60,720 nucleotides of DNA, taken from contig JADFIT010000004.1 of NCBI GenBank assembly GCA_022566515.1, forward strand, positions 1 through 60,720. Direction: 5' to 3'. Positions 5,840 through 37,724 of this stretch are shown here, one piece after another (positions within the stretch are counted from its first letter, which is position 1; each line of letters opens with the position of its first letter). Origin of the DNA: Gemmatimonadota bacterium. Lineage in GTDB: Bacteria; Gemmatimonadota; Gemmatimonadetes; Gemmatimonadales; GWC2-71-9. The notes beneath the pieces were generated by a model. The model was not told the DNA's origin. It did not search any database and saw only the letters and a list, made by a program, of their open reading frames with translations. Both the position numbers and the translations under genes were made by a program.

Positions 5840-5913
5840 TTGGTGAAATCGCGTAACTCTCTATATGTGAATGAATTGGGGCTCCGGTGAGGAGTCTCGC
5901 TTCCCTGCATAGT

Positions 5914-20595: not shown

Positions 20596-20658
20596 AGCGG
20601 AGGAAGATATCGTGGGTGAGCATTCGCTGCGAGACACGCACGGGGAGTGGGGAGTTTC

Positions 20659-20812: not shown

Positions 20813-22519
20813 ATGACAGCCCCACATACTCTTGCAAAGGGCCAGAGCGGAGCGGCGGGATCGGGGCCCAAGATTCCCACGTCGTCGGCGCTGCTGAAGT
20901 GGGTGTATTTGGGACGGCTCAGCGTGGCCACGGCGATTTTCGTCGCGTTTTCTTTCTACTTCACCGAACACCCGCCGGCCCAGTTTTTCATCATCACGTT
21001 GGCCCTGGTCTTGAGCCTGGTGTTCACGGGGGCTTCGTTCTTTCACACGCATGTCCGGGGTGTCGTACCGACTCCCACCTTCCTTTACATGCAGACGCTG
21101 TTCGATCTGGGTTTGGTCACAGCGGTGGTCCATGTGACCGGAGGAGCGAACAGCGACTTTGCGTCCCTCTACATCCTGGTCATAGCGGTGAGTGCGGTAA
21201 CCATGCCCATCGCCTCCGGCTTGCTGGTGACGATTCTCGCCGCCGTCCTATACATCGCGGATGTTTTGTTCGGACTGTACTTCGGGGATGTGGAGGGCCC
21301 GGTACAGCTTTCGGTGTCGCTCTGGTTCCAAGTGGGTGTTTTTGTCTTGGTGGCGCTCGCTGTCAGCTATCTCGCGAGCCGGGTCCGGGTGGTTGGGGCG
21401 GCCAGGACCGTGCTGGAGCAAGAGGTGAAGCGGCTCCGCCTCGAGGCGCCGGACATCCTGCGCCAACTCGTCACCGGGGTGGTCACCGTTGGCGGAGACG
21501 GGAGCCTGGCGTTCGCGAACCCGGCGGCGGAGCAGTTGCTTGGGTTCCAGAGTGAACGATATCTGGGCCTGCCGTTTCTCGGTTTCCTCGAGAACGTGTC
21601 GGAGGAGCTTGCCAAGGGGATCGTGATGGCACAACGCGATCGCCGCCGCCGCATGCGTCTGAACGGATCCGTGGTCTCCGACGGGCGCACGTTTCCCATA
21701 GGCGTCACCACGACGCTACACGAAACAGAGGGTGAGGAGCCCGCATCGGTCACGGCGATTTTCACGGACATTTCGGATCAGGTCCGCCTCCAGGAGTTGA
21801 ATCGGCGCACGGAGCGGTTGGAGGCGGTGGCGGAGCTGTCTGCATCGCTGGCGCACGAGATCAAAAATCCACTGGCGTCCATACGTTCTTCGGTGGAGCA
21901 GTTGGGAAAGTCAGCATATGCCGACGAAGACGATCAATTGCTCGCCGAGCTGATAATTCGCGAAAGCGATCGCTTGAGCAGGCTGCTGACCGATTTCTTG
22001 GATTTTTCGCGGCTCCAGGTGGGGGAGCCGCAGCCTGTACATATGGCAGCCGTTGCCGAGGCGGCGGTAGCCGTGGTGCGCGAACACCCCGATTGTCCTC
22101 CGGACGCGGATCTTACGATCGAGGGGCATTGTGCTCCGATTATAGGAGACGAGGACTTGCTGCACCGCGTCGTGGTGAATCTGCTGTTGAATGCAATGCA
22201 GGCCTCAGGAGGAAAGGCTTCGGTCAAGCTGGTGTTACGAGATGTGGAGGCCTCCGATGTGCCGGGTGGGGCGTTGCGAGAGCCCTGCATTCTCCTCGAG
22301 GTGTCGGACACCGGACCGGGGATTCCTCCGGAGTTGCGCGAGAAGCTCTTCGATCCGTTTGTGACGGGTCGCGACGGGGGCACGGGTCTCGGCCTTTCCA
22401 TCGTGCAACGTGCGGTGGTGGCGCACAGGGGATTGATCTTTGTGGATACGGAAACCGGCAAAGGCACCACGTTCAGCATATACTTGCCCCGCGCTAGACG
22501 GAAGGAGGTTGCGGCATGA
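20813..22519 (+). CDS. pilS: Sensor histidine kinase PilS (TM-PAS-HisKA-HATPase)
   Basis: About 6 TM helices, LAHEIKNPL, NLLLNAMQA, DTGPG, GTGLGLSI; lies in the pil locus. Confidence 0.9.
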   Translation: MTAPHTLAKGQSGAAGSGPKIPTSSALLKWVYLGRLSVATAIFVAFSFYFTEHPPAQFFIITLALVLSLVFTGASFFHTHVRGVVPTPTFLYMQTLFDLGLVTAVVHVTGGANSDFASLYILVIAVSAVTMPIASGLLVTILAAVLYIADVLFGLYFGDVEGPVQLSVSLWFQVGVFVLVALAVSYLASRVRVVGAARTVLEQEVKRLRLEAPDILRQLVTGVVTVGGDGSLAFANPAAEQLLGFQSERYLGLPFLGFLENVSEELAKGIVMAQRDRRRRMRLNGSVVSDGRTFPIGVTTTLHETEGEEPASVTAIFTDISDQVRLQELNRRTERLEAVAELSASLAHEIKNPLASIRSSVEQLGKSAYADEDDQLLAELIIRESDRLSRLLTDFLDFSRLQVGEPQPVHMAAVAEAAVAVVREHPDCPPDADLTIEGHCAPIIGDEDLLHRVVVNLLLNAMQASGGKASVKLVLRDVEASDVPGGALREPCILLEVSDTGPGIPPELREKLFDPFVTGRDGGTGLGLSIVQRAVVAHRGLIFVDTETGKGTTFSIYLPRARRKEVAA

Positions 22520-23889
22520 ACGAACGCCGACCGTCGATTCTCGTCATTGACGACGAGTCGGGCATCCTCGAGACCTTACGCATCCTGCTCAAGAAATCAG
22601 GATTTGACGTGAGCACGGCCCAGGGGGGAAGTAGCGCCCTAGAGGCGATCCAGGCCGGATCTGCGGACGTCGTGTTGACAGATGTGCGGATGCCTCAAAT
22701 CGGCGGCTTGGACATTCTTCACGCGGCGCACAAGCAGGATCCTGAGACGCCGGTCATCTTGATGACTGCGCAAGCGTCCCTGCAAACGGCGATTCAGGCT
22801 GTAAACGATGGCGCCTTCTATTACATCCAGAAGCCGTTTTCCAATGACGACATGGTGGCGATCTGCCGGCGTGCCGCGGAATACCGCGAGTTGCGGTTCG
22901 AGAACAAGCATCTCAAGAGCGAAATTCGCCGCCGCGACCGCTCCGTGGCCGCAAAGCCGCTCGGCAAGGCGCCCTGTTTCGTGGAGGTGATGAAACTCGC
23001 CGAACAAGTCGCGCCGACGGATTCGACGGTGTTGATCCAGGGCGAGAGCGGAACCGGGAAGGAGGTTATAGCCAGGTACATCCACGAGCTATCGCACCGC
23101 AGTGAGGGGCCGTTCTTGTCGATCAACTGCGGCGCACTGCCCGAGGGCCTATTGGAGTCAGAGCTGTTTGGCCACGTCAAGGGTTCGTTTACCGGAGCCA
23201 TAAGAGACAAGGAGGGGCTGTTCACGGCGGCCCGGGGCGGGAGTTTCTTCTTGGATGAAATCGGCGAGACCACCCCTGCGACACAAGTCAAGCTGCTTCG
23301 TGTGCTGCAAGAGCGCGAGGTTCTTCCGGTAGGCGGTACGGAACCGCTTCGGGTTGATGTAAGGGTGATAGCGGCGACGAACCGCGACCTCGATGAGGAG
23401 ATCCGGAGAGGACGATTTCGGTCTGACTTGTTTTACCGCCTCAATGTTTTCTCCCTTTACCTTCCGAAGCTGAGCGACCGGCGCGAGGACATACCACTCC
23501 TGGCGGAGGCGTCCCTCGAGCGCATCGGTAGAGAGCGGGATCATGGGGCTCCGGTCATGTCGCAGGACGTGCTCGACGCGATCATGGTGTACGAGTGGCC
23601 CGGTAACGTGCGAGAGTTGGAGAACGCCTTGGAGCACGCCGCCATCCTGACACGTGGGCCGGAGATCAACTTGGACGCTCTGCCCAAGCGGATCACGGCA
23701 CCCAAGGCTCAACCGCTGGTGGACGATCGTCCGGCAGCCAATCCGACCCTCGAAGTGATCGAGCAAGCGTATATCACGTGGGTGCTGCAGGCAGAGGGTG
23801 GCAACAAGACACGCACTGCTGAGGTGTTGGGCATCGATCCGTCTACGTTGTACCGCAAGCTCGCACGGTATGACTCAACCCAGGAATAG
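22516..23889 (+). CDS. pilR: Sigma54-dependent response regulator PilR
   Basis: Receiver (IDDE, LTDVRMP, KPF), GESGTGKE, GSFTGA, Fis-type HTH; coupled to pilS. Confidence 0.9.
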   Translation: MNERRPSILVIDDESGILETLRILLKKSGFDVSTAQGGSSALEAIQAGSADVVLTDVRMPQIGGLDILHAAHKQDPETPVILMTAQASLQTAIQAVNDGAFYYIQKPFSNDDMVAICRRAAEYRELRFENKHLKSEIRRRDRSVAAKPLGKAPCFVEVMKLAEQVAPTDSTVLIQGESGTGKEVIARYIHELSHRSEGPFLSINCGALPEGLLESELFGHVKGSFTGAIRDKEGLFTAARGGSFFLDEIGETTPATQVKLLRVLQEREVLPVGGTEPLRVDVRVIAATNRDLDEEIRRGRFRSDLFYRLNVFSLYLPKLSDRREDIPLLAEASLERIGRERDHGAPVMSQDVLDAIMVYEWPGNVRELENALEHAAILTRGPEINLDALPKRITAPKAQPLVDDRPAANPTLEVIEQAYITWVLQAEGGNKTRTAEVLGIDPSTLYRKLARYDSTQE

Positions 23890-24598
23890 CTCGCCGGTCT
23901 CTCAGGACGCCGTCGGAGCTGCCACGCTCGAGCGGATGGCAGAAGCTCCGGCGTTCAATCGCTGGATGTTCGATCGTCTTGCGGGATGGATCGGGTCTCG
24001 AGTTCTCGAGATAGGCTCCGGGATCGGCAACATGTCTCAGTTCTTCATCGATCGGGATCAAGTGGTTCTGACGGATACGGAATCGGCGTACCGGCTCGTG
24101 TTGCAGGAAAAGTTCGGCGCCCGCGGAAACGTCGCTGTCGTTGCCCTTTCCTTGCCTCATGTGCCCGGCGAGTTGTCCGGCCGACGTTTCGACACGATCG
24201 TCTGCTTGAACGTTCTGGAGCATATCGATGACGACATCGGGTCGCTCGAGGCGATGTATAGCCTCTTGGAGCCTGCCGGCAAGTTGGTGTTGCTGGTGCC
24301 GGCGTTTCCGGGGCTCTACGGTTCGCTGGACCGAGCGCTCGGTCACTATCGTCGCTATACCAGAAAGCTGCTGCGCGCCCGGTACGCGAAAGTCGGCTTT
24401 GCCATGCGCCGCCTCGAGTACTTCAACTTGGCCGGCATGCCAGGATGGTGGATCACTGGACGCCTACTGCGGCGTGATCTTATTCCCACAGGATCGCTCG
24501 CGCTGTATGACAGCTTGGTACCGCTGTTCCGATGGGAGAAGTTCCTGCCGCTCCGTGTTGGGCAATCCCTGATCGCGATTGGAGAGCGTCCGTCATGA
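23870..24598 (+). CDS. Class I SAM-dependent methyltransferase
   Basis: VLEIGSGIG, FDTIVCLNVLEHI, LLVPA..D..LGHYRRY. Confidence 0.88.
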   Translation: MTQPRNSSPVSQDAVGAATLERMAEAPAFNRWMFDRLAGWIGSRVLEIGSGIGNMSQFFIDRDQVVLTDTESAYRLVLQEKFGARGNVAVVALSLPHVPGELSGRRFDTIVCLNVLEHIDDDIGSLEAMYSLLEPAGKLVLLVPAFPGLYGSLDRALGHYRRYTRKLLRARYAKVGFAMRRLEYFNLAGMPGWWITGRLLRRDLIPTGSLALYDSLVPLFRWEKFLPLRVGQSLIAIGERPS

Positions 24599-25329
24599 GC
24601 ATACCGTCCGATTGGAATGACATCGTCGTTTCCGCCATCGTGCCGGTATACAACGAAGCGACTACTGTAAAGGCGGTCGTCGAGCGCCTGCATGAGGTCC
24701 CGCTCCACGTAGAGATTGTTGCGATCAACGACGGTTCGAGTGACGGGACGGGCAAGGTGTTGGACGCCCTGCGCGAACAGGGTCTGATCGACAAAGTGAT
24801 CCACCACCCCAAGAACAAAGGCAAGGGAGCGGCGGTGCGGGCCGGCATCGATGCGGCTACCGGTCACGTGATCGTGGTTCAGGATGCGGATTTGGAGTAC
24901 GACCCCACCGACCTTCCGACGTTGCTCGATCCGATCCGCTTGGACAAGGCCGACGCGGTGTACGGCTCCCGTTTCCACGGCGGCCCGCGAAGGGTCTTGT
25001 TCTTCTGGCACTCGATTGGAAATCGGTTTCTCACACTGCTGTCGAACATGCTGACGGACCTCAATCTGAGCGACATGGAAACGTGCTACAAGATGGTGCG
25101 TGCCGACCTGATGAAGTCGCTCCCGCTCGTGTCGAACCGATTCGGCATCGAGGTAGAGGTGACAGCTCGGCTCGCCCAGGCGGGGGCGAGAATCTGGGAG
25201 CTTCCCATCAGCTATTCGGGGCGCACTTACGCCGAAGGCAAGAAGATCGACTGGCGCGACGGCGTGGCGGCGTTCTGGCACATTCTCCGCTTCAACCTCC
25301 TTCCTCCAAGACGTAAGCGGGCTCGGTGA
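24595..25329 (+). CDS. GT2 glycosyltransferase, polyprenol-phosphate sugar synthase (DPM1-like)
   Basis: IVPVYNE, NDGSSDGT, NKGKGAA, QDADLEY, YGSRF, DMETCYK. Confidence 0.9.
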   Translation: MSIPSDWNDIVVSAIVPVYNEATTVKAVVERLHEVPLHVEIVAINDGSSDGTGKVLDALREQGLIDKVIHHPKNKGKGAAVRAGIDAATGHVIVVQDADLEYDPTDLPTLLDPIRLDKADAVYGSRFHGGPRRVLFFWHSIGNRFLTLLSNMLTDLNLSDMETCYKMVRADLMKSLPLVSNRFGIEVEVTARLAQAGARIWELPISYSGRTYAEGKKIDWRDGVAAFWHILRFNLLPPRRKRAR

Positions 25330-27176
25330 CGGCGGCGCTCGCCCCCGACTCCGGGCGGCGCATGGTCATCATGGCGACGCTCGCGGCTGCGGCGACCGCC
25401 GTGCTCGTTGCTCTTCCTTCGATCGTCAACGGATTCGTGTACGACGACGTGTGGATAGTTCAGGACAGAGATGTCGTGCATTCCCTGCATCCCCTGGGCG
25501 AGCTGCTGGCGGCGCCGTTCTGGCCTGAGGCGCGCGGTGGATACATGTGGCGCCCGACGACACTCTTCGCATTTGCCGGTCAGTGGGTCGTGGGTGGAGG
25601 GAGCCCGGCGGTATTCCATGCGGTCAGCGTAGTACTCTACGGAATGGTGTCCGGGTTGGTCGCCCTTCTGGGTGCGTGGCTGTTCGCGCCGATGGTTGGG
25701 TTGCTCGCCGGGATACTGTTCGCCGTCCACCCCGTCCACGTGGAGGTAACGGCCAACGTCGTGGGTCAGGCGGAACTGCTGGCAGCGCTGGGCTACCTCG
25801 TAGCGCTGGTGGCGGCGTGGGAGCGGAGCGGATCCTCCGACAGGGGAAGGCGATCGGTATTGCTGGTGGCCGTCGTCGCCGGCGTGGCGTTCGGATTGGG
25901 GGCCAAGGAACACGTCGTTACGATTCCTGCGGCTCTGCTCGCAGTCTGGTGGCGGCGCGGTACCCGCGACGGCGAAGGGTTCGCGGCCGTCGCTCGACGC
26001 GAGTGGCCCGCGTTGATCGCAGCGACGGTCGTGATCGTGGGGTATCTCGCGCTTCGGGCGCGGTTTGCGCATTCTGCGATGGCCGCGGGAGACCTGGGGC
26101 CTGGATTGGACCACACCTCCATGTTCGACCGGGCAGTGATCATGCTTCCGGTGTCGCTCGAGTGGCTACGGCTGCTGTTTCTACCGTTCCAACTCTCGGC
26201 GGACTATTCCCCGCAGCACCTGGTGCCCGACCGATCGTTCGGGCTGATGCACGCCGCTGCCGCCATGACGTGGCTTGCGGTGGCCGTGGGGGCGTGGAGG
26301 CGGCGGGACCGATGGCCCGCGGCTTTCGTCGGCGTGGTCATGTTCGCCGCGACGATCTCGGTCGTCTCCAACGTCATTGTCCCGTTGGAAGTGTTGCTGG
26401 CCGAACGGCTGTTGTTTCTTCCGTCCGTGGGCTGGGCGTTGGCCATCGGTGGCTTCTTCGGCGCCGCTCGATTCCGCGACGCATCGGTCCGGAGGCGCAT
26501 CGCAATGGTGGCTGCCGCGATGGTTGTGCTCGCGTTTGCGGCACGGAGCGTGGGACGCGCCGGCGTTTGGCGCACCAACGAGACGTTCTTTCGTCAACTC
26601 CTCCACGACGCGCCCGACTCGTTTCGGGCCCACTGGGCTATTGGCGCCATGGCGTTCGAACGCGGGGACAGCGCCATCGGCGAGCGCGAGATGCTTACCG
26701 CGGTAAGGCTGTATCCGGACAATGTGGATTTGCTGCATGATCTCGGGGTGTTGTACGCGTCTACCGACCGATACCAACCCGCGATTCCACTCCTCGAGCG
26801 TGCGGTCCTGATCGACTCCACCGCAGTCGGGACCGCGCTGTCGCTCGCGCTGGCATTGGGGCGAACCGAACGGTATCCGGACGCCCTGGTGGTCCTCGAT
26901 GCCATGACGCGGCTTCACGGAGAGACAAACGCAACATTGGTCGTTCGAGGCGACGTGTTGTCGCAGTCCGGCGATGCGGCAGGGGCGCTCGCGCAATTCG
27001 AAGAACTCACCAGGCGGGCGCCCGACTCATGGCGATATCGAATCCTGGCCGCGCAAGCTTCTGCTCGGGCTGGGCGCTGCGACGTGGCAAGGGCCCAAGT
27101 GGACACCGCACGCCAATTGGCCGTAGCGACGGGGCAGAGCCTGCCCACCCTGGACGATCCCGGGCTTTGCCGGTAA
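25326..27176 (+). CDS. TMTC-like GT-C membrane glycosyltransferase with C-terminal TPRs (copy 1)
   Basis: NGFVYDD, WRP, LFAVHPVHVEVTANVVG, AKE, LSADYS, AERLLFLPSVG, WRTN, then TPR-like helices. Confidence 0.82.
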   Translation: MTAALAPDSGRRMVIMATLAAAATAVLVALPSIVNGFVYDDVWIVQDRDVVHSLHPLGELLAAPFWPEARGGYMWRPTTLFAFAGQWVVGGGSPAVFHAVSVVLYGMVSGLVALLGAWLFAPMVGLLAGILFAVHPVHVEVTANVVGQAELLAALGYLVALVAAWERSGSSDRGRRSVLLVAVVAGVAFGLGAKEHVVTIPAALLAVWWRRGTRDGEGFAAVARREWPALIAATVVIVGYLALRARFAHSAMAAGDLGPGLDHTSMFDRAVIMLPVSLEWLRLLFLPFQLSADYSPQHLVPDRSFGLMHAAAAMTWLAVAVGAWRRRDRWPAAFVGVVMFAATISVVSNVIVPLEVLLAERLLFLPSVGWALAIGGFFGAARFRDASVRRRIAMVAAAMVVLAFAARSVGRAGVWRTNETFFRQLLHDAPDSFRAHWAIGAMAFERGDSAIGEREMLTAVRLYPDNVDLLHDLGVLYASTDRYQPAIPLLERAVLIDSTAVGTALSLALALGRTERYPDALVVLDAMTRLHGETNATLVVRGDVLSQSGDAAGALAQFEELTRRAPDSWRYRILAAQASARAGRCDVARAQVDTARQLAVATGQSLPTLDDPGLCR

Positions 27177-27200
27177 CGGCGTGTCGAGTGAGGGCGTGAG

Positions 27201-28700
27201 GTGAGCCGGGATCGCGGCCATCACGAGTTCTGGCCAGGACTGCTCGCCCTCGGCGTATTCGCGGTGTCACTGTGGGCCCAGCCCAGCGCTCTCGTCGGAG
27301 TGTTCTACGACGACGGGATCTATGTCGTCCTCGCGAAGGCGCTCGCCGAAGGCGAAGGGTATCGCTATCTGCACCTACCCGGTGCGCCACCCGGGGTGCA
27401 CTACCCCATACTCTACCCGGCCGTACTGAGCCTCCTGTGGCGCATGTGGCCGGCGTTTCCGCAAAATGTTGCGCTGTTCCAACTGTTCGATTCGGCGGCC
27501 CTCGCCGTGGCAGCCGGATTGATCGCGAAGCACGCCCGTCGTTGGGATATTTCTCCCGTCGTACAATACGTATCGCTCCCCCTCGCGTTCGTCGCGTTTC
27601 CCCTTCTTACCATCGTGGGCGTCCGGTTTTCCGAGCCACTGTTTCTGGCGCTGTTGGCGGGCGCCCTGGTCTTGGCCGACCGGGAAGAGGTGAGTGGGGC
27701 GAGGGGTGCCGCCGCCGGCCTGCTCGCGGGACTGGCCGCCCTCACTCGAAGCATCGGTATCGCCGCCGTTGCAAGCATTCCGCTGGCGCTATGGTTGGGC
27801 GGTAAGCGAAAACCGGCAGTGGCGGCGCTCATTGGCTCAGTGGCGCTCCTCGGGCCGTGGGTGATTTGGCTTTTCTTGCACGGCGATGCCGTCGATTCGC
27901 GGATCGCCTCGAATTACGGGACGTATCTGGCTGCGGCCGGCCAAACGGGCCTGCTCGGGATTCTGGCGGGGCTCGACTTCCGGGTGTTCGCGCCATTGGC
28001 CAGGCTCACCCTGCCGGCGGTGCCGCCGGTGATTTGGCTCGCTCTGGCGGGGCTTCTGGCCGCCGCGGTCGTGTGGGGCGCGGTGGTGGTGGCGCCGCGG
28101 GTTCCGGTGTTCGTCACAACGCTGGGGTTGTATCTGGCCATCGTGACGGTCTGGCCCTTTGCCCCGGATCGCTTTGTGTGGATCGTCTTGCCGTGGTTGG
28201 CCATGCTCGCGGTCGTAGGATCGATGGCTGCCTGGCGCAAAGGTTCGTGGACGCGCTGGCCTGTCGTGCTGCTGGCGCTGGCCGTCTTGGTGGGATATCC
28301 GAGGAGGGAGGCCGTGTCCCTTTGGCACAGGCAGTTCGCCGCCACGGCGGAGGGAATCACCGCCCCGTTCAGCGTGTTGGTGCCCGCCATCATTGCGGAG
28401 TTGGAGCCGAGCGCCGTCGTGGCGAGCGAGGACGAAGCGCTCGTCTATTTGTACACCGGCCGCCATTCGGTGCCGAGCTACCTGTTCCGCTGGAGCGGTC
28501 GCTCCACCACGCCCCTCTCCCGCGACAGCACGGTGCAGTTCTACTGTGACACAGGCGTGACCCATCTTGCCCTCTCCGGCCCCGCCGCTCCTGCGGCTCC
28601 CCTCGTCGACGAGCTGACCCAGGATTCGGATTCCACCCTCAGTCTGTTGTTCCGAGTCACCAACGGTCCCGCACTCTACGAATTCCGATGTCCGGACTGA
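27201..28700 (+). CDS. GT-C fold membrane glycosyltransferase (ArnT/PMT-like)
   Basis: FYDDGIY..LAKALAEG.GY, HYPILYP, SEPLF, LTRSIG; many TM helices. Confidence 0.7.
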   Translation: MSRDRGHHEFWPGLLALGVFAVSLWAQPSALVGVFYDDGIYVVLAKALAEGEGYRYLHLPGAPPGVHYPILYPAVLSLLWRMWPAFPQNVALFQLFDSAALAVAAGLIAKHARRWDISPVVQYVSLPLAFVAFPLLTIVGVRFSEPLFLALLAGALVLADREEVSGARGAAAGLLAGLAALTRSIGIAAVASIPLALWLGGKRKPAVAALIGSVALLGPWVIWLFLHGDAVDSRIASNYGTYLAAAGQTGLLGILAGLDFRVFAPLARLTLPAVPPVIWLALAGLLAAAVVWGAVVVAPRVPVFVTTLGLYLAIVTVWPFAPDRFVWIVLPWLAMLAVVGSMAAWRKGSWTRWPVVLLALAVLVGYPRREAVSLWHRQFAATAEGITAPFSVLVPAIIAELEPSAVVASEDEALVYLYTGRHSVPSYLFRWSGRSTTPLSRDSTVQFYCDTGVTHLALSGPAAPAAPLVDELTQDSDSTLSLLFRVTNGPALYEFRCPD

Positions 28701-30544
28701 GCCATCGTCGAGCGGCATTCGTCGCCGGTGTCGTCGCGTGCCTGGTGTTTGCCAATGCTTCGCGCAACGGATGGGCGGTCGACGACATCCCGGTAGTGCG
28801 GGACAACCCTGCGGCGCACTCGATCGGGGCGGCCTTGGATGCCGCCTTTTCCCCCTACCGGCCCGCGACTCTCGACGAGTCCTCGTCGGGTCTCTACCGG
28901 CCGGCTGCAGTCGTCTCGTACGCCGTGGATTGGACGGTGTCCGGCGGGCGACCGTGGTGGTTTCACGTCGTAAACGTGTTGCTGCACGGGCTCGTGACCG
29001 CCTTGGTTGTGGTGGTCGCCGGGGCGTGGCTCCTGCCGGTGGGGGCCTTGGGGGCGGGATTGCTGTTCGCCATACATCCGGTTCATGTCGAGGCCGTGGC
29101 AAACGTCGTGGGCCGGGCCGAGATCCTGGCAGCGTTGGGGTTGCTCACGGCGGTGCTGACGGCGCGCCGTTATCGCCGGGCCGCTCACAGAGGAACGGCT
29201 CGCCTGTGGTTCTTGGCGACGATGGCGGCGGTCGCGTTTGCCCTGCTTTCAAAAGAAAACGCCGTGGTTGCCGTGGTCTTCCTGGCGCTGGACCACTTGC
29301 TGGATGAGGAGCCTTCGCACCGGCCCATGGCAGAGTTGTACATCGCGGTGGTCGGTCTGACGGTGGGGTGGTTCTTCCTGTGGCGCGCCGTCGCCGGTGC
29401 GTACGTCACGGCAACCGTCGCCTTTAACTTCCGTGGCCTCTCGGCTGGCGGACGTATCGCCACGATGTTGCCGGTGCAATTGGACGTCGTCCGTCTGCTG
29501 ACTTGGCCGCTGCAACTCTCCCACGATTACAGCCCTCAGGTCGTTCCCCAGCGCACGGCGTTTGGTGTGCTGGCCCTGCTGGGGTTGATGACGTCGGGGG
29601 CTGTGCTGGTGCTTGGCGCCGCATGCGTGAGGCGGGCGCCGGCTATCGCCTTCGGGATTCTCGCCGCTGTGGCGATATATGCACCCACTTCGAACCTGGT
29701 GTTCGGTTCCGGCATCGCGTTGGCCGAGCGGAATCTGTATTTGGCTGTCCTAGCCCCGGCGCTCGTGGCGGGTTGGTTGACCCTATGTCCTCTATGTCTC
29801 CGGCACAGACCGGTGATGATCTTGGCGGCAGCCGCATTGGCGATGGTGTATGTGGGACGCACCGTAACGCGGACGCCGCTTTGGAGGGACACACAAACAG
29901 TCGTCATCGAGGGAGCGATTCAGCATCCCGAAAGCTACGCCACCCGAATTTGGGTTGGCGGCCTCAGCGCATTGGCGGGCCATTCCGCGAGCGCGCTGGC
30001 GGAATACTTGATAGCAGTCGAGTTGTTCGATCGCGATCCGCTGATCGCCATGGTCAGTGTTCCTCTGGCGCTCGCGATGGGTCGCCACCGGGTTGCCATC
30101 GATGAGGCACGACGGGCCTACGATCTAGACCCGGACCATCCGGCGTTCGTCGGCCTGCTGATTGACACCTACAGAGCGAGGGGCGACAGCGACTCCGCAA
30201 AGGCCGTGGCGCGCACCATGATAGCGGCGGCACCGCGGTCGCGTAGCCACGCGCAGATCTATTTGAATTTTCTCGAGGCCTACGGTGCCCCGGCATGGCA
30301 GGTGAGTTTGGCGCAATTGCGTCTCGACTGGCTCAACTTCCGGCTCCAGGCGGCGTCGCGCAGCATCGACTCGCTGCCCAACGTGATGGCGAGCCAAGTC
30401 CTGGATCAGGAATGGTGTCTCGAGTTGGAGACCTTGTGGCCCGGTATCCGCGCGCTGCGCCCATCCGTGGCCGACAGCTTGGCAGAATTAGTCGAATCGG
30501 CCCGCCTCCAGTGCGACCTGCCGGGAGATCCCGTCGATGGCTGA
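28688..30544 (+). CDS. TMTC-like GT-C membrane glycosyltransferase with TPR-like C-terminus (copy 2)
   Basis: NGWAVDD, LYRP, FHVVNVLLH, LFAIHPVHVEAVANVVGRAE, SKE, LSHDYS, AERNLYL. Confidence 0.82.
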   Translation: MSGLSHRRAAFVAGVVACLVFANASRNGWAVDDIPVVRDNPAAHSIGAALDAAFSPYRPATLDESSSGLYRPAAVVSYAVDWTVSGGRPWWFHVVNVLLHGLVTALVVVVAGAWLLPVGALGAGLLFAIHPVHVEAVANVVGRAEILAALGLLTAVLTARRYRRAAHRGTARLWFLATMAAVAFALLSKENAVVAVVFLALDHLLDEEPSHRPMAELYIAVVGLTVGWFFLWRAVAGAYVTATVAFNFRGLSAGGRIATMLPVQLDVVRLLTWPLQLSHDYSPQVVPQRTAFGVLALLGLMTSGAVLVLGAACVRRAPAIAFGILAAVAIYAPTSNLVFGSGIALAERNLYLAVLAPALVAGWLTLCPLCLRHRPVMILAAAALAMVYVGRTVTRTPLWRDTQTVVIEGAIQHPESYATRIWVGGLSALAGHSASALAEYLIAVELFDRDPLIAMVSVPLALAMGRHRVAIDEARRAYDLDPDHPAFVGLLIDTYRARGDSDSAKAVARTMIAAAPRSRSHAQIYLNFLEAYGAPAWQVSLAQLRLDWLNFRLQAASRSIDSLPNVMASQVLDQEWCLELETLWPGIRALRPSVADSLAELVESARLQCDLPGDPVDG

Positions 30545-30635
30545 GGGGTCCCCATGGACCAGCACCCGACAGGCTTAGAGATTAGATAACCTCCGAACGA
30601 AAGCCGAAGCTATGGCTGTGGCCGGCAGGGGTGGT

Positions 30636-30667
30636 ATTGCGAGTGTCCGCACGCCTTGCAAAATGAG
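30636..30667 (+). promoter_or_regulatory. Candidate PilR enhancer (UAS) upstream of pilin 1
   Basis: ATTGCG-N14-TTGCAAAATGAG, shared with the pilin 2 upstream region at nearly the same spacing. Confidence 0.55.
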
Positions 30668-30758
30668 TGCCGAGGATCACCTGGCGAGGGCGACTCCGCT
30701 CCGTTTGGCGCAGGCTAACCCTTTGTGGTAAAAGCGATTGCGGGGTTTTTGCTCAGCC

Positions 30759-30774
30759 GGGCACGGAGATTGCA
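30759..30774 (+). promoter_or_regulatory. Sigma54 (-24/-12) promoter of pilin 1
   Basis: GGGCACG-GAGA-TTGCA with exact GG-N10-GC spacing. Confidence 0.8.
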
Positions 30775-30853
30775 ATTGGGTCATTCACCGTTTCTGTTTT
30801 GAGCTAGCAGATAGTTTGGTTTTCGAGGTCTTGCCCCCTAAGGAGGAAGTTTC

Positions 30854-31231
30854 ATGTTGAATCGTAAGGGTTTCACCCTGATCGAGCTGCTGATCGTCGT
30901 GGTGATCATCGGTATTCTGGCCGCCATCGCGATCCCGAAGTTCTCCAACACCAAAGAGAAGGCCTATATCGCGGCCATGAAGTCGGATCTTCGCAATCTG
31001 GTAACCGCGCAGGAATCGTATTTCGCCGACACAGACCTGTATGGTGCTGTGGCTAACTTGGCGACCTACTACAATGCCTCTGCCGGTGTAACGGTTGTGG
31101 CGACCCCGACTGCGGGAATCTCCCACAGGGCTACCGCGACCCACAGCGGCACCATTCAGACGTGCGCCATCTACATCAACGAAGCCTTCGCAGCTCCTGC
31201 GACGTCCGAAGGCGCACCTGGCTGCGCGTAA
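30854..31231 (+). CDS. pilA: Type IVa major pilin
   Basis: Class III signal MLNRKG|FTLIELL, C-terminal Cys pair, strong RBS AGGAGG, own promoter and terminator. Confidence 0.93.
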   Translation: MLNRKGFTLIELLIVVVIIGILAAIAIPKFSNTKEKAYIAAMKSDLRNLVTAQESYFADTDLYGAVANLATYYNASAGVTVVATPTAGISHRATATHSGTIQTCAIYINEAFAAPATSEGAPGCA

Positions 31232-31263
31232 TGGCTGACTAGGAGGAGAGGAGTTGGTTCTTG

Positions 31264-31300
31264 GAGGCGGTGCGGGTTCAAATCTGCACCGCCTCTTTCT
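31264..31300 (+). terminator. Intrinsic terminator after pilin 1
   Basis: GAGGCGGTGC..GCACCGCCTC stem followed by TTTCT. Confidence 0.75.
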
Positions 31301-31400
31301 CCTCATTCCAGAGTCTCTATGTCGCCTGCCGCGATGGACTCGCAGCACTTTGGCAAATTCTCCGTTTCAACCTCTTCCCCCCTAGCCGCAAGCGCACCCC

Positions 31401-33374
31401 GTGAGTGAAGCCTTCGCGTCAATTCTCTGGCGCGTTATCGGTCTCGCCGTAATCCTTTTTTCCATCTTGCCAATAGCCGGATGGGTCGGGGCCCCAGACT
31501 CGGGACCGATCTGGCGGCCGAACATGAGCGCGTGGCTCATTGGGTGTTTCGTGGTTGCCGTGGTCGGGTGTTTGGCTGGGCGCTTGGGTGGAAAGGTCCG
31601 GGTCGAGGCGCCGCGGATTCCCGACTCGGTCTACAAGTTGGCTCCCCCCCTACTCGCTGTAGTGCTCGCTGGTTTGTCCGCTCTTGCGATGCAAGACGCC
31701 TTCGCGGGCAACCCGCACCTCATAGACGAAATGGCCCAGCTCTTTCAAGGCAAAGTGTTCGCCAGCGGCCGGCTCGCCGCACCAGTTCCAAGCCCGCCGG
31801 ACTTCTTTTTGATTACGCAAACTTTTGTGGTGGGCGATGGCTGGGTTTCGCAGTATCCACCGGGTCAGGCTCTACTATTTGCACTTGGGTTCAACCTGCA
31901 CGCAGAGTGGCTGGTGAATCCACTGCTGGGTGGTGTGGGGGTGTTGCTGGTCTTCTCCATCGCCAGTGGCCTTTATGACCGTACCACCGGTCTCGTCGCT
32001 GCTCTGCTTTGGGCGGGTTCTTCTTGGGTGCTGTTCATGTCAGCCACGTACATGAATCACGTGGGTGCCACGACATTCGCACTGGCCGCATGGGCCTCTA
32101 TATGGTGCCCGAAAGAACTCAAACGATGGCACCTTGTGGGGGCCGGATTCTTTCTTGCTGCCGCAGCAGCAACAAGGCCGCTGGACGCAGTTGCCGCTTC
32201 TCTGCCCATCTGTGTGTGGCTGCTGACTCGGCGCCGTATGACTGCGATCGGCTGGGTAGCAGTCGGCACGGTGCCCGTGATGGCGGCCTGGGGTTTCATG
32301 AATTGGAAACTCTTCGGCAACCCGGCCACCATGGGATACTCCGCCCTGTACGGCTCGGAGTTGAGCCTGGGATTTCACACCGATCCCTGGGGACGGGAAT
32401 ACACACCGCTGGTGGCATTGAGCAACATGGCAGTAGCCGTGCGACGACTCAGCATTCACCTCTTCGAGTGGCCGATTCCCGCCCTGCTGCCGGTCGCGGC
32501 ATGGGGTCTGCTCGCGTCCAAGAAAAGGCAGGGCGACTTGGTGCTGGCCTTGGGGGTCATGGCCGGCCCGGCGCTGTATTTCTTTTACTGGCATTCGGGT
32601 TTTTATCCCGGCCCTCGCTTCTACTACATCTCCGCGCCTTTTCTGGTCATGGCGACGGCGCGGGCCTGGGCCTGGGCCTGGGGGCATTGGGGTGGGAGCA
32701 GGCGCTTCGGATTGCGATGGGATGTCTCCCTCACCGCCATGGCCGCCGTGGTGTTGTTGTGGGGTTGGGTGAGCCTCTCTCCAGGGCGTTGGGACTTTTA
32801 CAAGTCGCAACTGGTCTCACTCAAGCTCCACCCCGAGCGCCAGCTGAAAGAACAGAGTGTTAGCCAGGCCCTGGTATTGGTTCCGGAAAGCTGGGGAAGC
32901 CGAATAGTCACCAGTCTATGGGGCCTTGGGGCCTCACCCCCGCTGGTAGAAAGGGCGTACAACAGGATCGACGCATGCGATCTTCACACGTTCGTGCAAC
33001 GGGCACGTCAATCGGGGATCGTCGGTCCGGCGCTTTCAGATAGTCTGCGTGAGCTTTTGGCGGCGAGTGATCTTCAAGCCAGCCCTCTGATGGACTGGCC
33101 GGATCCCTCCCTCCGTTTGCGCCAGCGCGCTACGATGCCGGAAAGCTGTAAGATCGAGCTGGAAAGGGACCTTCAGGGATTTACCTTGTACGGTCACCTG
33201 GGCTGGCGGAACCGCATCGGGCTGGATTCGGGACTCGTCTTCGCCCGGGACCTCTATGAGAGAAACACCGAACTCCTGGCCCGGTACGAAGGGTGGCAGG
33301 TCTGGCGCTATGCCCCTCCGCTTGACGATCCGGAGGGAACCCCGGTACTCACCCTAATTAGGGATCGGAGCTGA
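31401..33374 (+). CDS. GT-C fold membrane glycosyltransferase (ArnT/PMT-like) between the two pilins
   Basis: HLIDEMAQLFQ, SQYPPG, MSATYMNH, TRPLD, GPRFY; more than 10 TM helices. Confidence 0.7.
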   Translation: MSEAFASILWRVIGLAVILFSILPIAGWVGAPDSGPIWRPNMSAWLIGCFVVAVVGCLAGRLGGKVRVEAPRIPDSVYKLAPPLLAVVLAGLSALAMQDAFAGNPHLIDEMAQLFQGKVFASGRLAAPVPSPPDFFLITQTFVVGDGWVSQYPPGQALLFALGFNLHAEWLVNPLLGGVGVLLVFSIASGLYDRTTGLVAALLWAGSSWVLFMSATYMNHVGATTFALAAWASIWCPKELKRWHLVGAGFFLAAAAATRPLDAVAASLPICVWLLTRRRMTAIGWVAVGTVPVMAAWGFMNWKLFGNPATMGYSALYGSELSLGFHTDPWGREYTPLVALSNMAVAVRRLSIHLFEWPIPALLPVAAWGLLASKKRQGDLVLALGVMAGPALYFFYWHSGFYPGPRFYYISAPFLVMATARAWAWAWGHWGGSRRFGLRWDVSLTAMAAVVLLWGWVSLSPGRWDFYKSQLVSLKLHPERQLKEQSVSQALVLVPESWGSRIVTSLWGLGASPPLVERAYNRIDACDLHTFVQRARQSGIVGPALSDSLRELLAASDLQASPLMDWPDPSLRLRQRATMPESCKIELERDLQGFTLYGHLGWRNRIGLDSGLVFARDLYERNTELLARYEGWQVWRYAPPLDDPEGTPVLTLIRDRS

Positions 33375-33512: not shown

Positions 33513-33527
33513 GGGCACGGAGTTTGC
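33513..33527 (+). promoter_or_regulatory. Sigma54 (-24/-12) promoter of pilin 2
   Basis: GGGCACG-GAGT-TTGC with exact GG-N10-GC spacing; one mismatch to the pilin 1 promoter core. Confidence 0.8.
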
Positions 33528-33695: not shown

Positions 33696-34085
33696 ATGCA
33701 CACCGATGACCGAGGCTTTACACTCATCGAAGTGCTCATCGTGACGGTGATCATTGGGATTCTGGCGGCGGTCGCGATCCCAAAATTGGCCAAGAGCAAA
33801 GAAAAGGCTCACCTTGCGGCGATGACGTCGGATTTGCGGAATCTGGCTACTGCGCAGGAGGCCTACCACTACGATCAGGCCACCTACTATGACGGCGCCG
33901 TGCCCTCCGCCAAGCTCGCCTACGGTGTCTCGTCAGGGGTCTCAGTGACGCTTTCCAGCGTGACGGGCGCCGGCTGGGCGGCGGTGACCAAGCACACCAA
34001 TACCCTCAAGACCTGTGCCATTTTTATGGGTGGTGCTGCGCCGCCGCCGCCTGCGGTTACAGACGCGCAAGTGAGGTGCTCGTGA
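33696..34085 (+). CDS. Second type IVa pilin (paralogue of pilin 1)
   Basis: RG|FTLIEVL, SDLRNL.TAQE.Y, TCAI..C-terminal Cys. Confidence 0.92.
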   Translation: MHTDDRGFTLIEVLIVTVIIGILAAVAIPKLAKSKEKAHLAAMTSDLRNLATAQEAYHYDQATYYDGAVPSAKLAYGVSSGVSVTLSSVTGAGWAAVTKHTNTLKTCAIFMGGAAPPPPAVTDAQVRCS

Positions 34086-34293: not shown

Positions 34294-34653
34294 ATGGCCG
34301 GGTCGGAAAAAACCGGGAGGTGCGGTTTCACGGTTGTCGAGACGATGGTGGCGGTGACGCTGCTGGCAGTCGGCGTGCTGGCGCTGGCCTCGACGTTGGC
34401 GTTCATCACGCGCATGATCGGCGAGGGTGCCAAGTATGGTATGGTGGCGGCGGTCGGGAGGGGAACTCTGGAATCGCTGTTGCCCATCGCCTGCGACGGC
34501 GGGGCCCACGGCGACACTGCAATCGGCGCGCTCGTGGTGGTGTGGACGGTGAATCGTGTCGCCGGCATGTCTGAGCTGAGGGTGTCGGTTGCGGCACCAG
34601 CCGCGACCTCCCGCATAGACAGCTTCGCCACCGCCCGTGCGTGCGCCAGGTGA
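34294..34653 (+). CDS. Minor pilin, PilV-like
   Basis: G|FTVVETMVAVTLLAVGVLALA. Confidence 0.75.
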   Translation: MAGSEKTGRCGFTVVETMVAVTLLAVGVLALASTLAFITRMIGEGAKYGMVAAVGRGTLESLLPIACDGGAHGDTAIGALVVVWTVNRVAGMSELRVSVAAPAATSRIDSFATARACAR

Positions 34654-35504
34654 GGCGCTGCGGTTTTACGCTGACGGAGCTTCTGGTTGCCCTCGTTCTA
34701 GGGGCGGCGGTTGCGGCAGCGGCCCTGAGTGTCTTGGTGGTGAGTCAGCGGGTGTACGGTCGTCAGGTGAGTCTGGCGGACGCCAGTGCCACCGCCAGGG
34801 CGGCCACGGCGATCTTGATCTCTGAGCTTCGCGGCCTCGACGCGTCGGCTGCGTCGGGGAGCGACCTGCTTCGCGTCACCCCCGCCTCGCTGACCTACCG
34901 AGCCCTACGCAGCCTATACACAACGTGCAAGGTAGCGGACCTCGCTCGGTCGACCATCGTGCTCCATGCAGACTTCTTGGGAGTCCGGCCGTTGGACCCG
35001 GGAGTTGATTCGTTGCTCCTCTTTGCCGACGGCGATCCCACGGTGTCGGAGGACGATCGCTGGATCCACGCCGATATCCGGGAGATCATCCCGGGCCCGA
35101 TCTGTCCGGACGGTCGTCCCGGGATCACCGTGCATCTCGCGGGCGTATCAAAGCGGAATCTGGAGAGAGTGGGCATCGGGGCTCCCGTCCGAGGAGCGGC
35201 CCTCTGGGAGATGAAGGGCTACCGGGCCGCCAACGGGCAGTGGTGGGTGGGCATGCGTCGCTATCGCAAATCTACGGGTCGCTGGCCTTCCATCCAGCCG
35301 GTTCTCGGACCTATCGCGCCGGGCGGCCTGCGGTTTGGGTACTACGACGCCAGCGGGGTTCCCACGCAAGTGGCCAGCCGGATTGCCAGCATAGTTCTCG
35401 AGCTGGCCACGCCCGGGGGCGACGGGTCGGCTCCCCATTGGGCCGTCGCCCCCGAGAGATCTCTGACGCTCCGTGTGGCCTTGCGGAGTTCCCTCCCCCG
35501 CTAA
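34641..35504 (+). CDS. Minor pilin, PilW-like
   Basis: G|FTLTELLVAL, ISELR, GLRFGYYD, C-terminal VALR. Confidence 0.75.
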   Translation: MRQVRRCGFTLTELLVALVLGAAVAAAALSVLVVSQRVYGRQVSLADASATARAATAILISELRGLDASAASGSDLLRVTPASLTYRALRSLYTTCKVADLARSTIVLHADFLGVRPLDPGVDSLLLFADGDPTVSEDDRWIHADIREIIPGPICPDGRPGITVHLAGVSKRNLERVGIGAPVRGAALWEMKGYRAANGQWWVGMRRYRKSTGRWPSIQPVLGPIAPGGLRFGYYDASGVPTQVASRIASIVLELATPGGDGSAPHWAVAPERSLTLRVALRSSLPR

Positions 35505-36686: not shown

Positions 36687-37724
36687 ATGGCACTTTTCGG
36701 GCTTGGACGAAGGCGATCGACGGTAGGGCTAGACATTGGCAGCGGGCTCATCAAGGTCGTGGTCATAGACCACAGCAGCGGTGAGCCTGAGCTGACCCGT
36801 GTTGCGACGACGCCTGTTTTGGCCGATGCCATCGTAGAGGGAGAGGTGATGGACCATGCGGTGGTGGCCGAAGCGATCAGGGGTTTGTTTACCGGCATCA
36901 AGCAAAAGCGTGTGGTGGTTGCCGTGGGCGGTCGAGACGTGATCGTCAAGAAGATTCAAGTCGACCGCATGAAGGAAGGCGATGCTGCGGAGGTGGTGCG
37001 GTGGGAAGCGCAACAGCACGTTCCCTTCGACATTGAGGGTGTGGAGCTGGACTTCCAGGTGCTCGATCCCGACGGCGACGGGCTGCAGATGGATGTACTG
37101 CTAGTAGCGGCAAAGCGCGAGCTGGTGGAGACCAAGGTTACGCTGCTGGCGGATGCCGGCTTGCAGCCGGAAAAGGTGGATGTGGACGCGTTCGCTCTGC
37201 ACAATGCGTTTGAACTGAGCTATCCGGAGGCGATGGAGGGCGTTGCCGCGCTGGTCAACATCGGCCACGAAGTCAGCAACATAAACATCCTTCAGGATGG
37301 CATACCTCTGCTGAGCAGAGATCTGAGCATAGGGACTCGAAAGTTCAGGGAGGATTTGCAGCGTGATTTGGGAATGTCGTCGGAGGATGCGGAAGCGATC
37401 CTGAGTGCTGGAGAGCCTCGCCCCGAACTGGCCCAGTACGTTACCACCCGCGGCGACGAGATTGCCGTGGGGGTGGAGCGAGCGGCCGCGTTTCTTCAGG
37501 CGGCCTCTCGGGAAGCGTCGGGGATTCAGCAGATGTACATCTCGGGCGGCGGCGCGCGAATTCACGGAATGGCCGATGCGTTGAACAGCCGTTTGGGAAT
37601 ACCTGTCGAGGTGGCCAACCCGTTGCAGCGGCTGCGGGTGAGGGAAGGCGTGTTCGATACAATGGAAGTGGATCGGGTTGCTCCTCTGCTGATGCAGAGC
37701 ATCGGCCTGGCCCTCCGGACGTGA
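36687..37724 (+). CDS. pilM: Type IV pilus assembly protein PilM
   Basis: VGLDIGS, WEAQQHVPF, LLVAAK, NIGH, ISGGGA, IGLALR. Confidence 0.95.
   Translation: MALFGLGRRRSTVGLDIGSGLIKVVVIDHSSGEPELTRVATTPVLADAIVEGEVMDHAVVAEAIRGLFTGIKQKRVVVAVGGRDVIVKKIQVDRMKEGDAAEVVRWEAQQHVPFDIEGVELDFQVLDPDGDGLQMDVLLVAAKRELVETKVTLLADAGLQPEKVDVDAFALHNAFELSYPEAMEGVAALVNIGHEVSNINILQDGIPLLSRDLSIGTRKFREDLQRDLGMSSEDAEAILSAGEPRPELAQYVTTRGDEIAVGVERAAAFLQAASREASGIQQMYISGGGARIHGMADALNSRLGIPVEVANPLQRLRVREGVFDTMEVDRVAPLLMQSIGLALRT

Follow-up and report, generated by a model that had tools for sequence, protein, structure and literature searches.

A Candidate Pilin Glycosylation Island in a Type IV Pilus Cluster

The first 60,720 nucleotides of contig JADFIT010000004.1 (GenBank assembly GCA_022566515.1) from a Gemmatimonadota bacterium, hereafter called the window, carry a complete type IVa pilus cluster in which a set of putative glycosylation genes is found between pilR and pilM, all on the plus strand. 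This island encodes a methyltransferase, a family GT2 glycosyltransferase and four GT-C enzymes, two of which (TMTC-like a, P0001, and TMTC-like b, P0002) have tails of tetratricopeptide repeats (TPR) and resemble the animal TMTC proteins, and two of which (GT-C x, P0003, and GT-C y, P0004) are without TPR. The island is best explained, with a probability of about 60%, as a pilin-dedicated pathway for stepwise periplasmic O-glycosylation from a lipid-phosphate monosaccharide, possibly a methylated one, with pilin proposed as the acceptor from gene neighbourhood alone. The order pilS–pilR–methyltransferase–GT2–TMTC-like–GT-C–TMTC-like–pilA1–GT-C–pilA2, given from pilR onward in a preliminary description of the sequence, agrees with both the open reading frames (ORFs) and the Pfam/NCBIfam matches. 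The tight coupling from pilR through TMTC-like b, also described there, is evident from neighbouring genes that overlap by 4–20 nt or stand 24 nt apart; the ATG of the methyltransferase gene at 23870 overlaps the 3′ end of pilR. The pilin genes are separated from their neighbours by gaps of 309, 169, and 321 nt.

Conservation and Distribution of the Island

A one-genome-per-species scan returned 597 stretches encoding a TMTC-like relative, all of them found through the motif FA[VA]HPVHVE. The best 80 of the 597, all from Gemmatimonadota, were kept, and the window genes were mapped onto them by tblastn. A pilin gene was located no more than 1 kb from the TMTC-like gene in 62 of these 80 loci, and at 1–5 kb in one more. 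The remaining 17 had no pilin gene within 5 kb, five of them ending at most 570 nt from the TMTC-like gene. A GT2 homologue (at least 50% identity) was present in 53 of the related loci, pilR (at least 55% identity) in 46, upstream of the glycosylation genes, and a TPR-less GT-C of the x or y type likewise in 46, with GT-C y in 26. The loci carried one (51 loci), two (23) or three (6) TMTC-like copies, and no pattern between TMTC-like and pilin copy number was seen by eye among the 80 loci.

The adjacency of TMTC-like and pilin genes survives inversion of the block relative to pilSR (loci L039 and L054), replacement of the flanking pilSR by a second pilS/pilR (L006, L015, L047, and L080), and variation from one to three copies of either the TMTC-like or the pilin gene. 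In the genome to which the window belongs, just two full-length TMTC-like copies were found, both in the pilus locus. Thus, the neighbourhood check called for in the preliminary description revealed a module that is tightly and recurrently linked to pilin genes.

Two further features of the related loci were observed. In one locus (L003:2000–7612), which is 93–99% identical to positions 25326–28700 of the window, an extra GT-C y-like gene (53% identity to P0004) is inserted between TMTC-like a and GT-C x, with a ~110-nt duplication of the beginning of GT-C x flanking it, which suggests a recent gain or loss of a GT-C gene in the island. In many relatives (L006, L015, L018, L022, L027, L034, L047, L051, L055, and others), a second, diverged pilS/pilR pair (~30–45% identity to that of the window) is found directly downstream of the pilins; this pair is absent from the window.

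When the phylum was sampled evenly, 203 of 401 Gemmatimonadota genomes and 78 of 146 genera had the TMTC-like domain (the tally includes the unpublished genome G181), and 377 of 401 had PilM (including the unpublished G096, G056, G181, and G156). In one family (f6), none of the 30 genomes showed the TMTC-like domain, and 28 had PilM. Because the genomes are kin, these counts are descriptive and not a statistical test. Since PilM is near-universal and the TMTC-like domain is present in half of the genomes, the module is an accessory of the pilus rather than part of its core, which fits an optional pilus decoration.

The TMTC-Like Enzymes

The luminal DD pair and the HPVHVE..N.VG, KE and AER motifs, which the preliminary description had ascribed to both TMTC-like proteins, were all found in both. 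The DD pair is at residues 40/41 of TMTC-like a and 32/33 of TMTC-like b, KE at 194/195 and 189/190, and AER at 359–361 and 346–348, respectively. In an alignment of 110 N-terminal domains, the residues D40, D41, R76, P77, F132, H135, P136, H138, E140, E150, K194, E195, P287, E360, and R361 are invariant.

The AlphaFold2 model of TMTC-like a (pLDDT, 90.1) has 11 long helices in residues 10–415, followed by a TPR solenoid at 418–601, and TPR families of Pfam match at 420–600. With 11 helices preceding the TPR part, the DD loop and the TPR domain would lie on the same, periplasmic, side of the membrane, and the arginines before the first transmembrane (TM) helix agree with a cytoplasmic N-terminus. 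A VIA-align comparison of P0001 with 48,161 chains gave AglB (Z, 21.1; 344 residues aligned; root-mean-square deviation, 5.1), STT3 (19.7), Pmt2 (19.5), ArnT (19.2), and Pmt4 (18.8). As judged from its model, P0001 is therefore a member of the GT-C superfamily (GT-C_A fold). The fold emerged with the wide VIA-align comparison; a Foldseek search of the full model against PDB returned TPR proteins only, and the PDB searches by sequence and with the N-terminal profile matched TPR chains only and nothing for the membrane domain. There was no TMTC structure among the listed structural matches of the P0001 model. The TPR part of P0001 has weak NCBIfam matches to Tgl and PilW.

TMTC-like b, which has a TPR_19 match, is 35% identical to TMTC-like a, and the two proteins are placed in different deep paralogue clades of the tree built from the 110 domains. 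In this tree, the sister group of clade a consists of short forms of ~490–510 aa with about two TPR repeats.

The family TMTC_DUF1736 (PF08409) is the one most often matched by the 110 N-terminal domains (53 of 110 at E ≤ 1; best E-value, 1.2 × 10−5), ahead of PMT_2 (33 of 110), a TMEM260-like family (1 of 110), and PMT (PF02366; 1 of 110). P0002 itself scores 12.8–13.3 bits (cut-off, 27), by a weak match at the DY motif; P0001 is not matched. The JGI name "protein O-mannosyl-transferase" is attached to 10 of the 120 listed homologues, and in the Atlas a chordate DUF1736 cluster is found at rank 21 (score, 0.94), after bacterial clusters tagged PMT_2. The earlier label "TMTC-type" thus holds for the architecture, in part for the motifs, and, at E ≤ 1, for about half of the relatives, and does not hold at the level of the family cut-off for the window proteins. 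P0001 and P0002 are accordingly called TMTC-like, in architecture and motifs, the comparison being with the published TMTC motif list only. According to one preprint, prokaryotes have GT105, the CAZy family of TMTC, "to a limited degree" (bioRxiv 10.1101/2023.08.23.554508), and no characterised bacterial member of the TMTC type was found in the literature searched.

The GT2 Enzyme and Its Methyltransferase Partner

DPM1-type GT2 enzymes make lipid-phosphate sugar donors, and GT-C enzymes use these donors outside the cytoplasm. The GT2 of the island matches Glycos_transf_2 of Pfam (E-value, 1.9 × 10−33) and, by sequence, is closest in PDB to the DPMS of Pyrococcus furiosus (5mlz; 9.4 × 10−15), GtrB of Synechocystis (sll0501; 8 × 10−13), and ArnC (1 × 10−9). 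In NCBIfam it matches AglJ, PpgS, and a Dol-P-hexose transferase best, without reaching the cut-off of any of them, and it has no TM or hydrophobic segment. With DPMS, GtrB and ArnC as its nearest relatives, the protein is, on sequence grounds, a polyprenyl-phosphate sugar synthase of this family. The pairing of a DPM1-like GT2 with GT-C enzymes, noticed earlier, is therefore upheld, and four GT-Cs accompany it.

The methyltransferase, which also contains no hydrophobic segment, was searched for alone in metagenomes, and the best 80 of 577 confirmed stretches were kept. A GT2 homologue adjoins the methyltransferase relative in 69 of these 80 loci. All 38 close relatives (at least 55% identity) have the GT2 directly downstream, in the arrangement pilR–methyltransferase–GT2. 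Among the 42 distant relatives, on contigs with a G–C content from 35% to 76%, the GT2 is directly upstream in 24 and downstream in seven; none was found in 11, two of which are too short to judge. In 16 of the 80 loci, no stop codon separates the GT2 and methyltransferase matches, which are in one open frame, and in one locus (L151) Pfam places Glycos_transf_2 and Methyltransf domains in a single ORF of 523 aa. Adjacency in both orders and a shared frame across diverse lineages speak for a joint function of the methyltransferase and the lipid-sugar synthase, and the assignment of the methyltransferase as a genuine GT2 partner is thus supported. The simplest reading of this coupling is that the methyltransferase would methylate the lipid-linked sugar on the cytoplasmic face. 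A precedent is found in archaea, where AglP methylates a dolichol-phosphate-bound glycan. N-methylation of pilin was rejected as a role for the methyltransferase, since this reaction is performed by the prepilin peptidase and the conserved partner of the methyltransferase is the GT2.

The apparent GT2::methyltransferase fusions (~450–520 aa; L120, L125, L130, L135, L139, L140, L143, L144, L146, L148, L149, L151, L152, L153, L159, and L160) are found on contigs of widely varying G–C content. No description of such a fusion was found in the literature searched, and they may constitute a separate, undescribed module for lipid-sugar modification.

The TPR-Less GT-C Enzymes and the En-Bloc Machinery

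GT-C x matches no Pfam family. Its AlphaFold2 model (pLDDT, 91.1) has Foldseek hits to STT3 (7oci_F; 9.4 × 10−7) and ArnT (5f15; 1.4 × 10−6), as well as to ALG12, DPY19, PglB, and AftA in the range from 10−6 to 10−4, and an FYDD sequence is located in the first loop. GT-C y was judged from its sequence: PMT_2 is matched just under the cut-off (24.6 bits against 26.1; E-value, 3.4 × 10−5), the Atlas clusters closest to it are Gemmatimonadota clusters in which 12–14% of the members carry PMT_2, and there is a weak match to Wzy_C_2 (E-value, 0.01). The earlier assignment of both proteins to the plain GT-C enzymes stands.

Likewise, no oligosaccharyltransferase of the PglL/TfpO type, Wzx or Wzy had been visible in the preliminary description, and none of the window proteins scanned contained a Wzy_C/PglL-type, Wzx or Wzy domain. 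Genome-wide, Wzy_C gave two matches, both below the cut-off and on other contigs (C14 and C53). The Pfam scans of the locus proteins detected no MIR domain, TPR being present instead.

The Pilins and Their Promoters

The short leader of PilA1 ends in G|FTLIE, and its pair of C-terminal cysteines (C104 and C124) is invariant in 41 pilins; PilA2 is 47% identical to PilA1. Serine and threonine make up a median of 0.28 of the globular part in the 41 pilins (0.21 and 0.22 in those of the window), compared with 0.107 in 20 other window proteins. As no single Ser/Thr is invariant, this richness gives weak support to O-glycosylation of pilin.

The pattern GGCACN5TTGC has three matches in the 60.7-kb window against 0.71 expected, and both plus-strand copies are located upstream of pilin genes. 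With a sigma-54 type element in front of each, the two pilins look driven by PilR and sigma-54 from promoters of their own, as far as can be judged from the pattern. The modifying genes are probably co-transcribed with pilS–pilR.

Comparison with Known Systems

By its published description, TfpW appears to be the closest characterised system to the Gemmatimonadota island. This D-arabinofuranosyltransferase of group IV pilin from Pseudomonas aeruginosa Pa5196 and P. paraeruginosa PA7 (646 aa; ~620–650 aa) is described as having a cytoplasmic N-terminus, 11 TM helices, an essential DDx in the first periplasmic loop, a large periplasmic TPR region, and an ArnT-like model (bioRxiv 10.1101/2020.04.19.049825). 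According to the same source, its gene adjoins pilA, it is required for the attachment of D-arabinofuranose (D-Araf) to several Ser/Thr positions in the pilin, the sugar is supplied as a polyprenyl-phosphate monosaccharide and not as an en-bloc oligosaccharide, and homologues are found beside pilA in other Proteobacteria (bioRxiv 10.1101/2020.04.19.049825). The island shares with this account a GT-C enzyme with periplasmic TPR, a DDx loop, and a gene beside the major pilin gene, the pilin being within 1 kb in most of the related loci.

The differences concern the donor, the number of enzymes, the phylum and the motifs. Unlike the D-Araf pathway of the DprE1/E2 type described for TfpW, the island has a GT2 of the DPMS/GtrB type and a methyltransferase, which points to a hexose-type, possibly methylated, donor branch. 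No PRPP (phosphoribosyl pyrophosphate) transferase and no DprE1/DprE2 domain turned up in the scan, which covered 40 proteins of the window and not the remaining genome. In place of the single TfpW that is described, two TPR-bearing and two TPR-less GT-Cs are found, located upstream of and between two pilin genes and not downstream, in another phylum and with the TMTC-like motif set. Stepwise pilin glycosylation by a GT-C/TPR enzyme is already known. The preliminary description had proposed a route distinct from en-bloc pilin glycosylation; such a route is consistent with the lack of a visible en-bloc transferase, but, given the TfpW precedent, it is real without being new.

Animal TMTC1–4 (GT105) are protein O-mannosyltransferases of cadherins in the endoplasmic reticulum, with 11 TM helices and a C-terminal luminal TPR region (PMC6801728, PMC7801869). 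Their motifs M1–M7 are listed as DD, SHKSYRP, RxD, KE(T/Q)xxT, DW, PxxP, and ERxxY (PMC7801869, Table 4). The P0001 model has the same arrangement of 11 TM helices and a non-cytoplasmic C-terminal TPR domain, and the motifs come in the same order: DD and (S/Y)RP in loop EL1, HP.H.E...G(R/Q)A(E/D), KE...T in EL3, D-(W/Y) in EL4, and ER..(Y/F) in EL5. In the window proteins they read DD, (W/Y)RP, KEHVVT/KENAVV, and ERLLF/ERNLY, as compared with the published list and not aligned to TMTC sequences, with DY in place of DW and QAE/RAE in place of the listed RxD. A Dol-P- or polyprenyl-P-sugar synthase provides the donor in both cases. Unlike the animal proteins, however, the island enzymes are bacterial and periplasmic, their presumed substrate is pilin and not cadherin, and they score far under the DUF1736 cut-off. 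No paper treating both TfpW and TMTC was found in the literature searched.

The logic of the donor branch is also that of the three-component periplasmic glycosylation systems GtrA/GtrB/Gtr*, ArnC/ArnEF/ArnT, and CsbB/GtcA/YfhO (PMC11127046), in which, as described, a cytoplasmic GT2 makes a polyprenyl-P-monosaccharide and a GT-C transfers the sugar outside the cytoplasm; the GT2 of the island is related to GtrB and ArnC. The acceptors described for those systems are O-antigen, lipid A, and teichoic acids, not proteins, their GT-Cs are without TPR, and they include a flippase gene of the GtrA/SMR/MATE families. No member of these flippase families was found among the window proteins scanned.

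Stepwise glycosylation of Ser/Thr from polyprenyl-P-mannose by a GT-C is also the mode of actinobacterial Ppm1/Pmt (GT39) and animal TMEM260 (GT117), and, as mentioned above, the structures most similar to P0001 include Pmt2 and Pmt4. TMEM260 is reported to have 11 TM helices, partial TPR repeats, and "distant homologs in bacteria" (PMC10214176). The island, in contrast, has no luminal MIR domain of the PMT kind and is dedicated to its locus rather than general, and PF02366 and the TMEM260-like family each match a single one of the 110 domains.

Proposed Mechanism and Alternative Explanations

The folds, motifs, family assignments, gene linkage, and coupling of the methyltransferase to the GT2 are observed; from them we infer which protein accepts the sugar (pilin), which sugar is used, what is methylated, and how the four GT-Cs share the work, as follows. 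By homology, the soluble GT2 would use a nucleotide sugar to charge polyprenyl phosphate with a monosaccharide at the cytoplasmic face, and the adjacent methyltransferase, to judge from its coupling to the GT2, would probably methylate the lipid-linked sugar or its precursor. Some flippase would then move the lipid-P-sugar to the periplasmic face. As suggested by synteny and by TfpW, the two TMTC-like GT-Cs would hold the membrane-anchored, unassembled pilin by their periplasmic TPR domains and transfer the sugar to Ser/Thr. This transfer would involve the DD loop together with the KE and D-Y loops for metal and phosphate and the ER loop for phosphate. More speculatively, the TPR-less GT-C x and GT-C y may lengthen the glycan or, alternatively, act at different sites or on the second pilin.

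Several observations weigh against such a pilin-dedicated pathway. In ~10–12 of the 80 related loci, the TMTC-like gene has no pilus gene nearby. The members of the short-form clade are located mostly among housekeeping genes (L008, L011–L014, and L017; e.g., L012:9983–11452, next to hisS, proS, lysA, guaA, PTS EIIA, and dus), and in another locus (L026) a related TMTC-like copy is found ~3 kb downstream of uppS. Two other short forms (L009 and L010) are again followed by a pilin. The housekeeping context of the short forms means that the family also has non-pilin roles, or acts in trans. As the 80 loci belong to one phylum and are kin, their shared synteny is partly inheritance. There is no nucleotide-sugar gene in the locus, a search of the 95% complete own genome for GtrA_DPMS_TM (PF04138), the one flippase family searched there, gave nothing at E ≤ 0.01, and the methyltransferase was found in only nine of the 80 related Gemmatimonadota loci. 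In two of the fusion loci (L151 and L148), genes for YfhO-type GT-Cs are next to the GT2–methyltransferase and no pilin was seen; YfhO enzymes reportedly act on cell-wall polymers in Firmicutes (PMC7389260). Finally, none of the Ser/Thr residues in the globular domain is invariant among the 41 pilins.

Part of this evidence would be accommodated by a general periplasmic protein O-glycosylation, in which pilins would be one of many exported clients, or the genes would merely belong to the pilSR regulon. The TPR domains would be able to bind many clients, four genomes (G042, G138, G219, and G335) have a TMTC-like match and no PilM match, the short-form clade occurs in housekeeping contexts with no pilin nearby, and the animal TMTCs and PMTs are described as acting on sets of proteins (PMC7801869, PMC10214176). 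Still, we regard this explanation as unlikely: both TMTC-like copies of the own genome are inside the pilus locus, a pilin within 1 kb has been kept in most of the related loci despite rearrangements, and no other candidate substrate gene recurs beside the TMTC-like genes.

An acceptor other than protein, whether lipid A, lipopolysaccharide, exopolysaccharide, or peptidoglycan, as in ArnC/ArnT, GtrB/Gtr*, and CsbB/YfhO, with the genes placed in the pilus locus for surface co-regulation, is in our view quite improbable. The long periplasmic TPR domain is common to the protein-modifying TMTC, TMEM260, and TfpW and is not a feature of ArnT, Gtr*, and YfhO; the locus contains no genes for assembling or exporting a polysaccharide; and the linkage is to pilA itself and not to genes of the pilus machinery. 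Set against this are ArnT among the structural neighbours of P0001, a GT2 close to ArnC and GtrB, the distant GT2–methyltransferase pairs that adjoin YfhO-type GT-C genes, the lack of a TPR domain in GT-C x and GT-C y, and lptF/lptG, which are in the same window at a distance of 15–17 kb. There is similarly little chance that the target is another part of the pilus (minor pilins, PilQ, or another assembly protein), or that the TPR proteins contribute chiefly to pilus assembly or stability and catalyse little or nothing. PilF, PilW, and Tgl are TPR proteins that act in pilus biogenesis, the latter two are weakly matched by the TPR part of P0001, and a minor-pilin-like gene follows pilA2; however, all of the catalytic-site residues are invariant in the 110 domains, 53 of the 80 loci also encode a dedicated donor synthase, and the genes adjoin and precede major-pilin-like genes, not pilQ or minor pilins.

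Layout of the Locus and Neighbouring Genes

The coordinates of the pilus cluster and of the island are given in Table 1.

Table 1. Genes and promoter-like elements of the pilus cluster and of the putative glycosylation island (positions in the window).
Feature	Position	Strand	Description	Evidence
pilB	13771–15474		Type IVa pilus cluster gene	Pfam/NCBIfam matches
pilT	15479–16633		Type IVa pilus cluster gene	Pfam/NCBIfam matches
pilC	16655–17848		Type IVa pilus cluster gene	Pfam/NCBIfam matches
pilS	20813–22519	+	Sensor histidine kinase of the pilin regulon	Pfam 6TM_PilS, PAS, HisKA, HATPase_c
pilR	22516–23889	+	Sigma-54-dependent response regulator	Pfam Response_reg, Sigma54_activat, HTH_8
Methyltransferase	23870–24598	+	Class I S-adenosylmethionine-dependent methyltransferase, soluble; GT2 partner	Pfam Methyltransf_23/12/25/11
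GT2	24595 (alternative start 24532)–25329	+	Putative polyprenyl-phosphate glycosyltransferase (DPMS/GtrB/ArnC type)	Pfam Glycos_transf_2
TMTC-like a (P0001)	25326–27176	+	GT-C with C-terminal, predicted periplasmic TPR	AlphaFold2 model, TPR Pfam matches
GT-C x (P0003)	27201–28700	+	GT-C with small C-terminal alpha/beta periplasmic domain, without TPR	AlphaFold2 model, Foldseek
TMTC-like b (P0002)	28688–30544	+	Second GT-C/TPR enzyme	Motifs, TPR_19 match
GGCACGGAGATTGC	30760–30773	+	Sigma-54 type −24/−12 element, 81 nt upstream of pilA1	Pattern GGCACN5TTGC
pilA1 (P0125)	30854–31231	+	Type IVa major-pilin-like, 125 aa	Pfam N_methyl, NCBIfam PilA_Myxo
GT-C y (P0004)	31401–33374	+	PMT_2-like, C-terminal soluble domain of ~190 aa	PMT_2 below cut-off
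GGCACGGAGTTTGC	33514–33527	+	Sigma-54 type −24/−12 element, 169 nt upstream of pilA2	Pattern GGCACN5TTGC
pilA2 (P0126)	33696–34085	+	Second pilin, 129 aa	Pfam/NCBIfam matches, pilin alignment
Minor-pilin-like gene	34641–35504	+	Prepilin N-terminus; context, outside the glycosylation module	Pfam N_methyl
pilM, then pilN, pilO, pilQ	36687–37724 (pilM); 39509–41320 (pilQ)		Downstream of the minor-pilin-like gene	Pfam

Three other ORFs of the window were observed. Between pilC and pilS, an 877-aa ORF on the opposite strand (18004–20637) encodes a lysC–lysA-like fusion of an aspartokinase (AA_kinase and ACT) with a PLP (pyridoxal phosphate) domain of the diaminopimelate decarboxylase type. The product of positions 57278–58957 (plus strand) combines 4Fe-4S ferredoxin domains, a domain similar to the large subunit of [FeFe]-hydrogenase, and a C-terminal GGDEF diguanylate cyclase, and may be a redox-sensing synthase of cyclic diguanylate. 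A 2065-aa ORF at 5887–12084 (plus strand), divergent from lptF/lptG, has a match to SprA_N, similar to the translocon of type IX secretion.

Significance

No paper combining Gemmatimonadota, type IV pili, and glycosylation was found in the literature searched. It is possible, if rather doubtful, that throughout the phylum the type IV pilin is the native client of bacterial relatives of animal TMTC, and that these enzymes use a sugar donor as yet undescribed in protein glycosylation, namely a polyprenyl-phosphate sugar methylated by the partner of the GT2. The catalytic mechanism and substrate choice of the TMTC proteins are described as resting on models (PMC7801869), and the island offers a compact and testable bacterial model for TMTC-like enzymes, which half of the sampled genomes of this widespread soil phylum carry. 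As the enzyme, donor synthase, methyltransferase, and likely substrate are encoded within 10 kb, reconstitution should be straightforward. The pairing of GT2 and methyltransferase hints at a modified lipid-linked sugar donor, and is a lead that extends beyond pili.

Glycosylation of pilin alters the pilus surface, and in Pseudomonas it is reported to protect against pilus-specific phages (bioRxiv 10.1101/150227); the variable copy numbers of GT-C and pilin genes would fit phage pressure. If this reading, with pilin as native client and a methylated donor, is true, the pilus subunits of Gemmatimonadota would carry an O-methyl-hexose, and one to three TPR-bearing and up to two TPR-less GT-C paralogues would diversify the pilus surface, perhaps against such phages. 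The small operons of these bacteria would then provide a tractable model of how TMTC-type enzymes choose folded, beta-rich domains.

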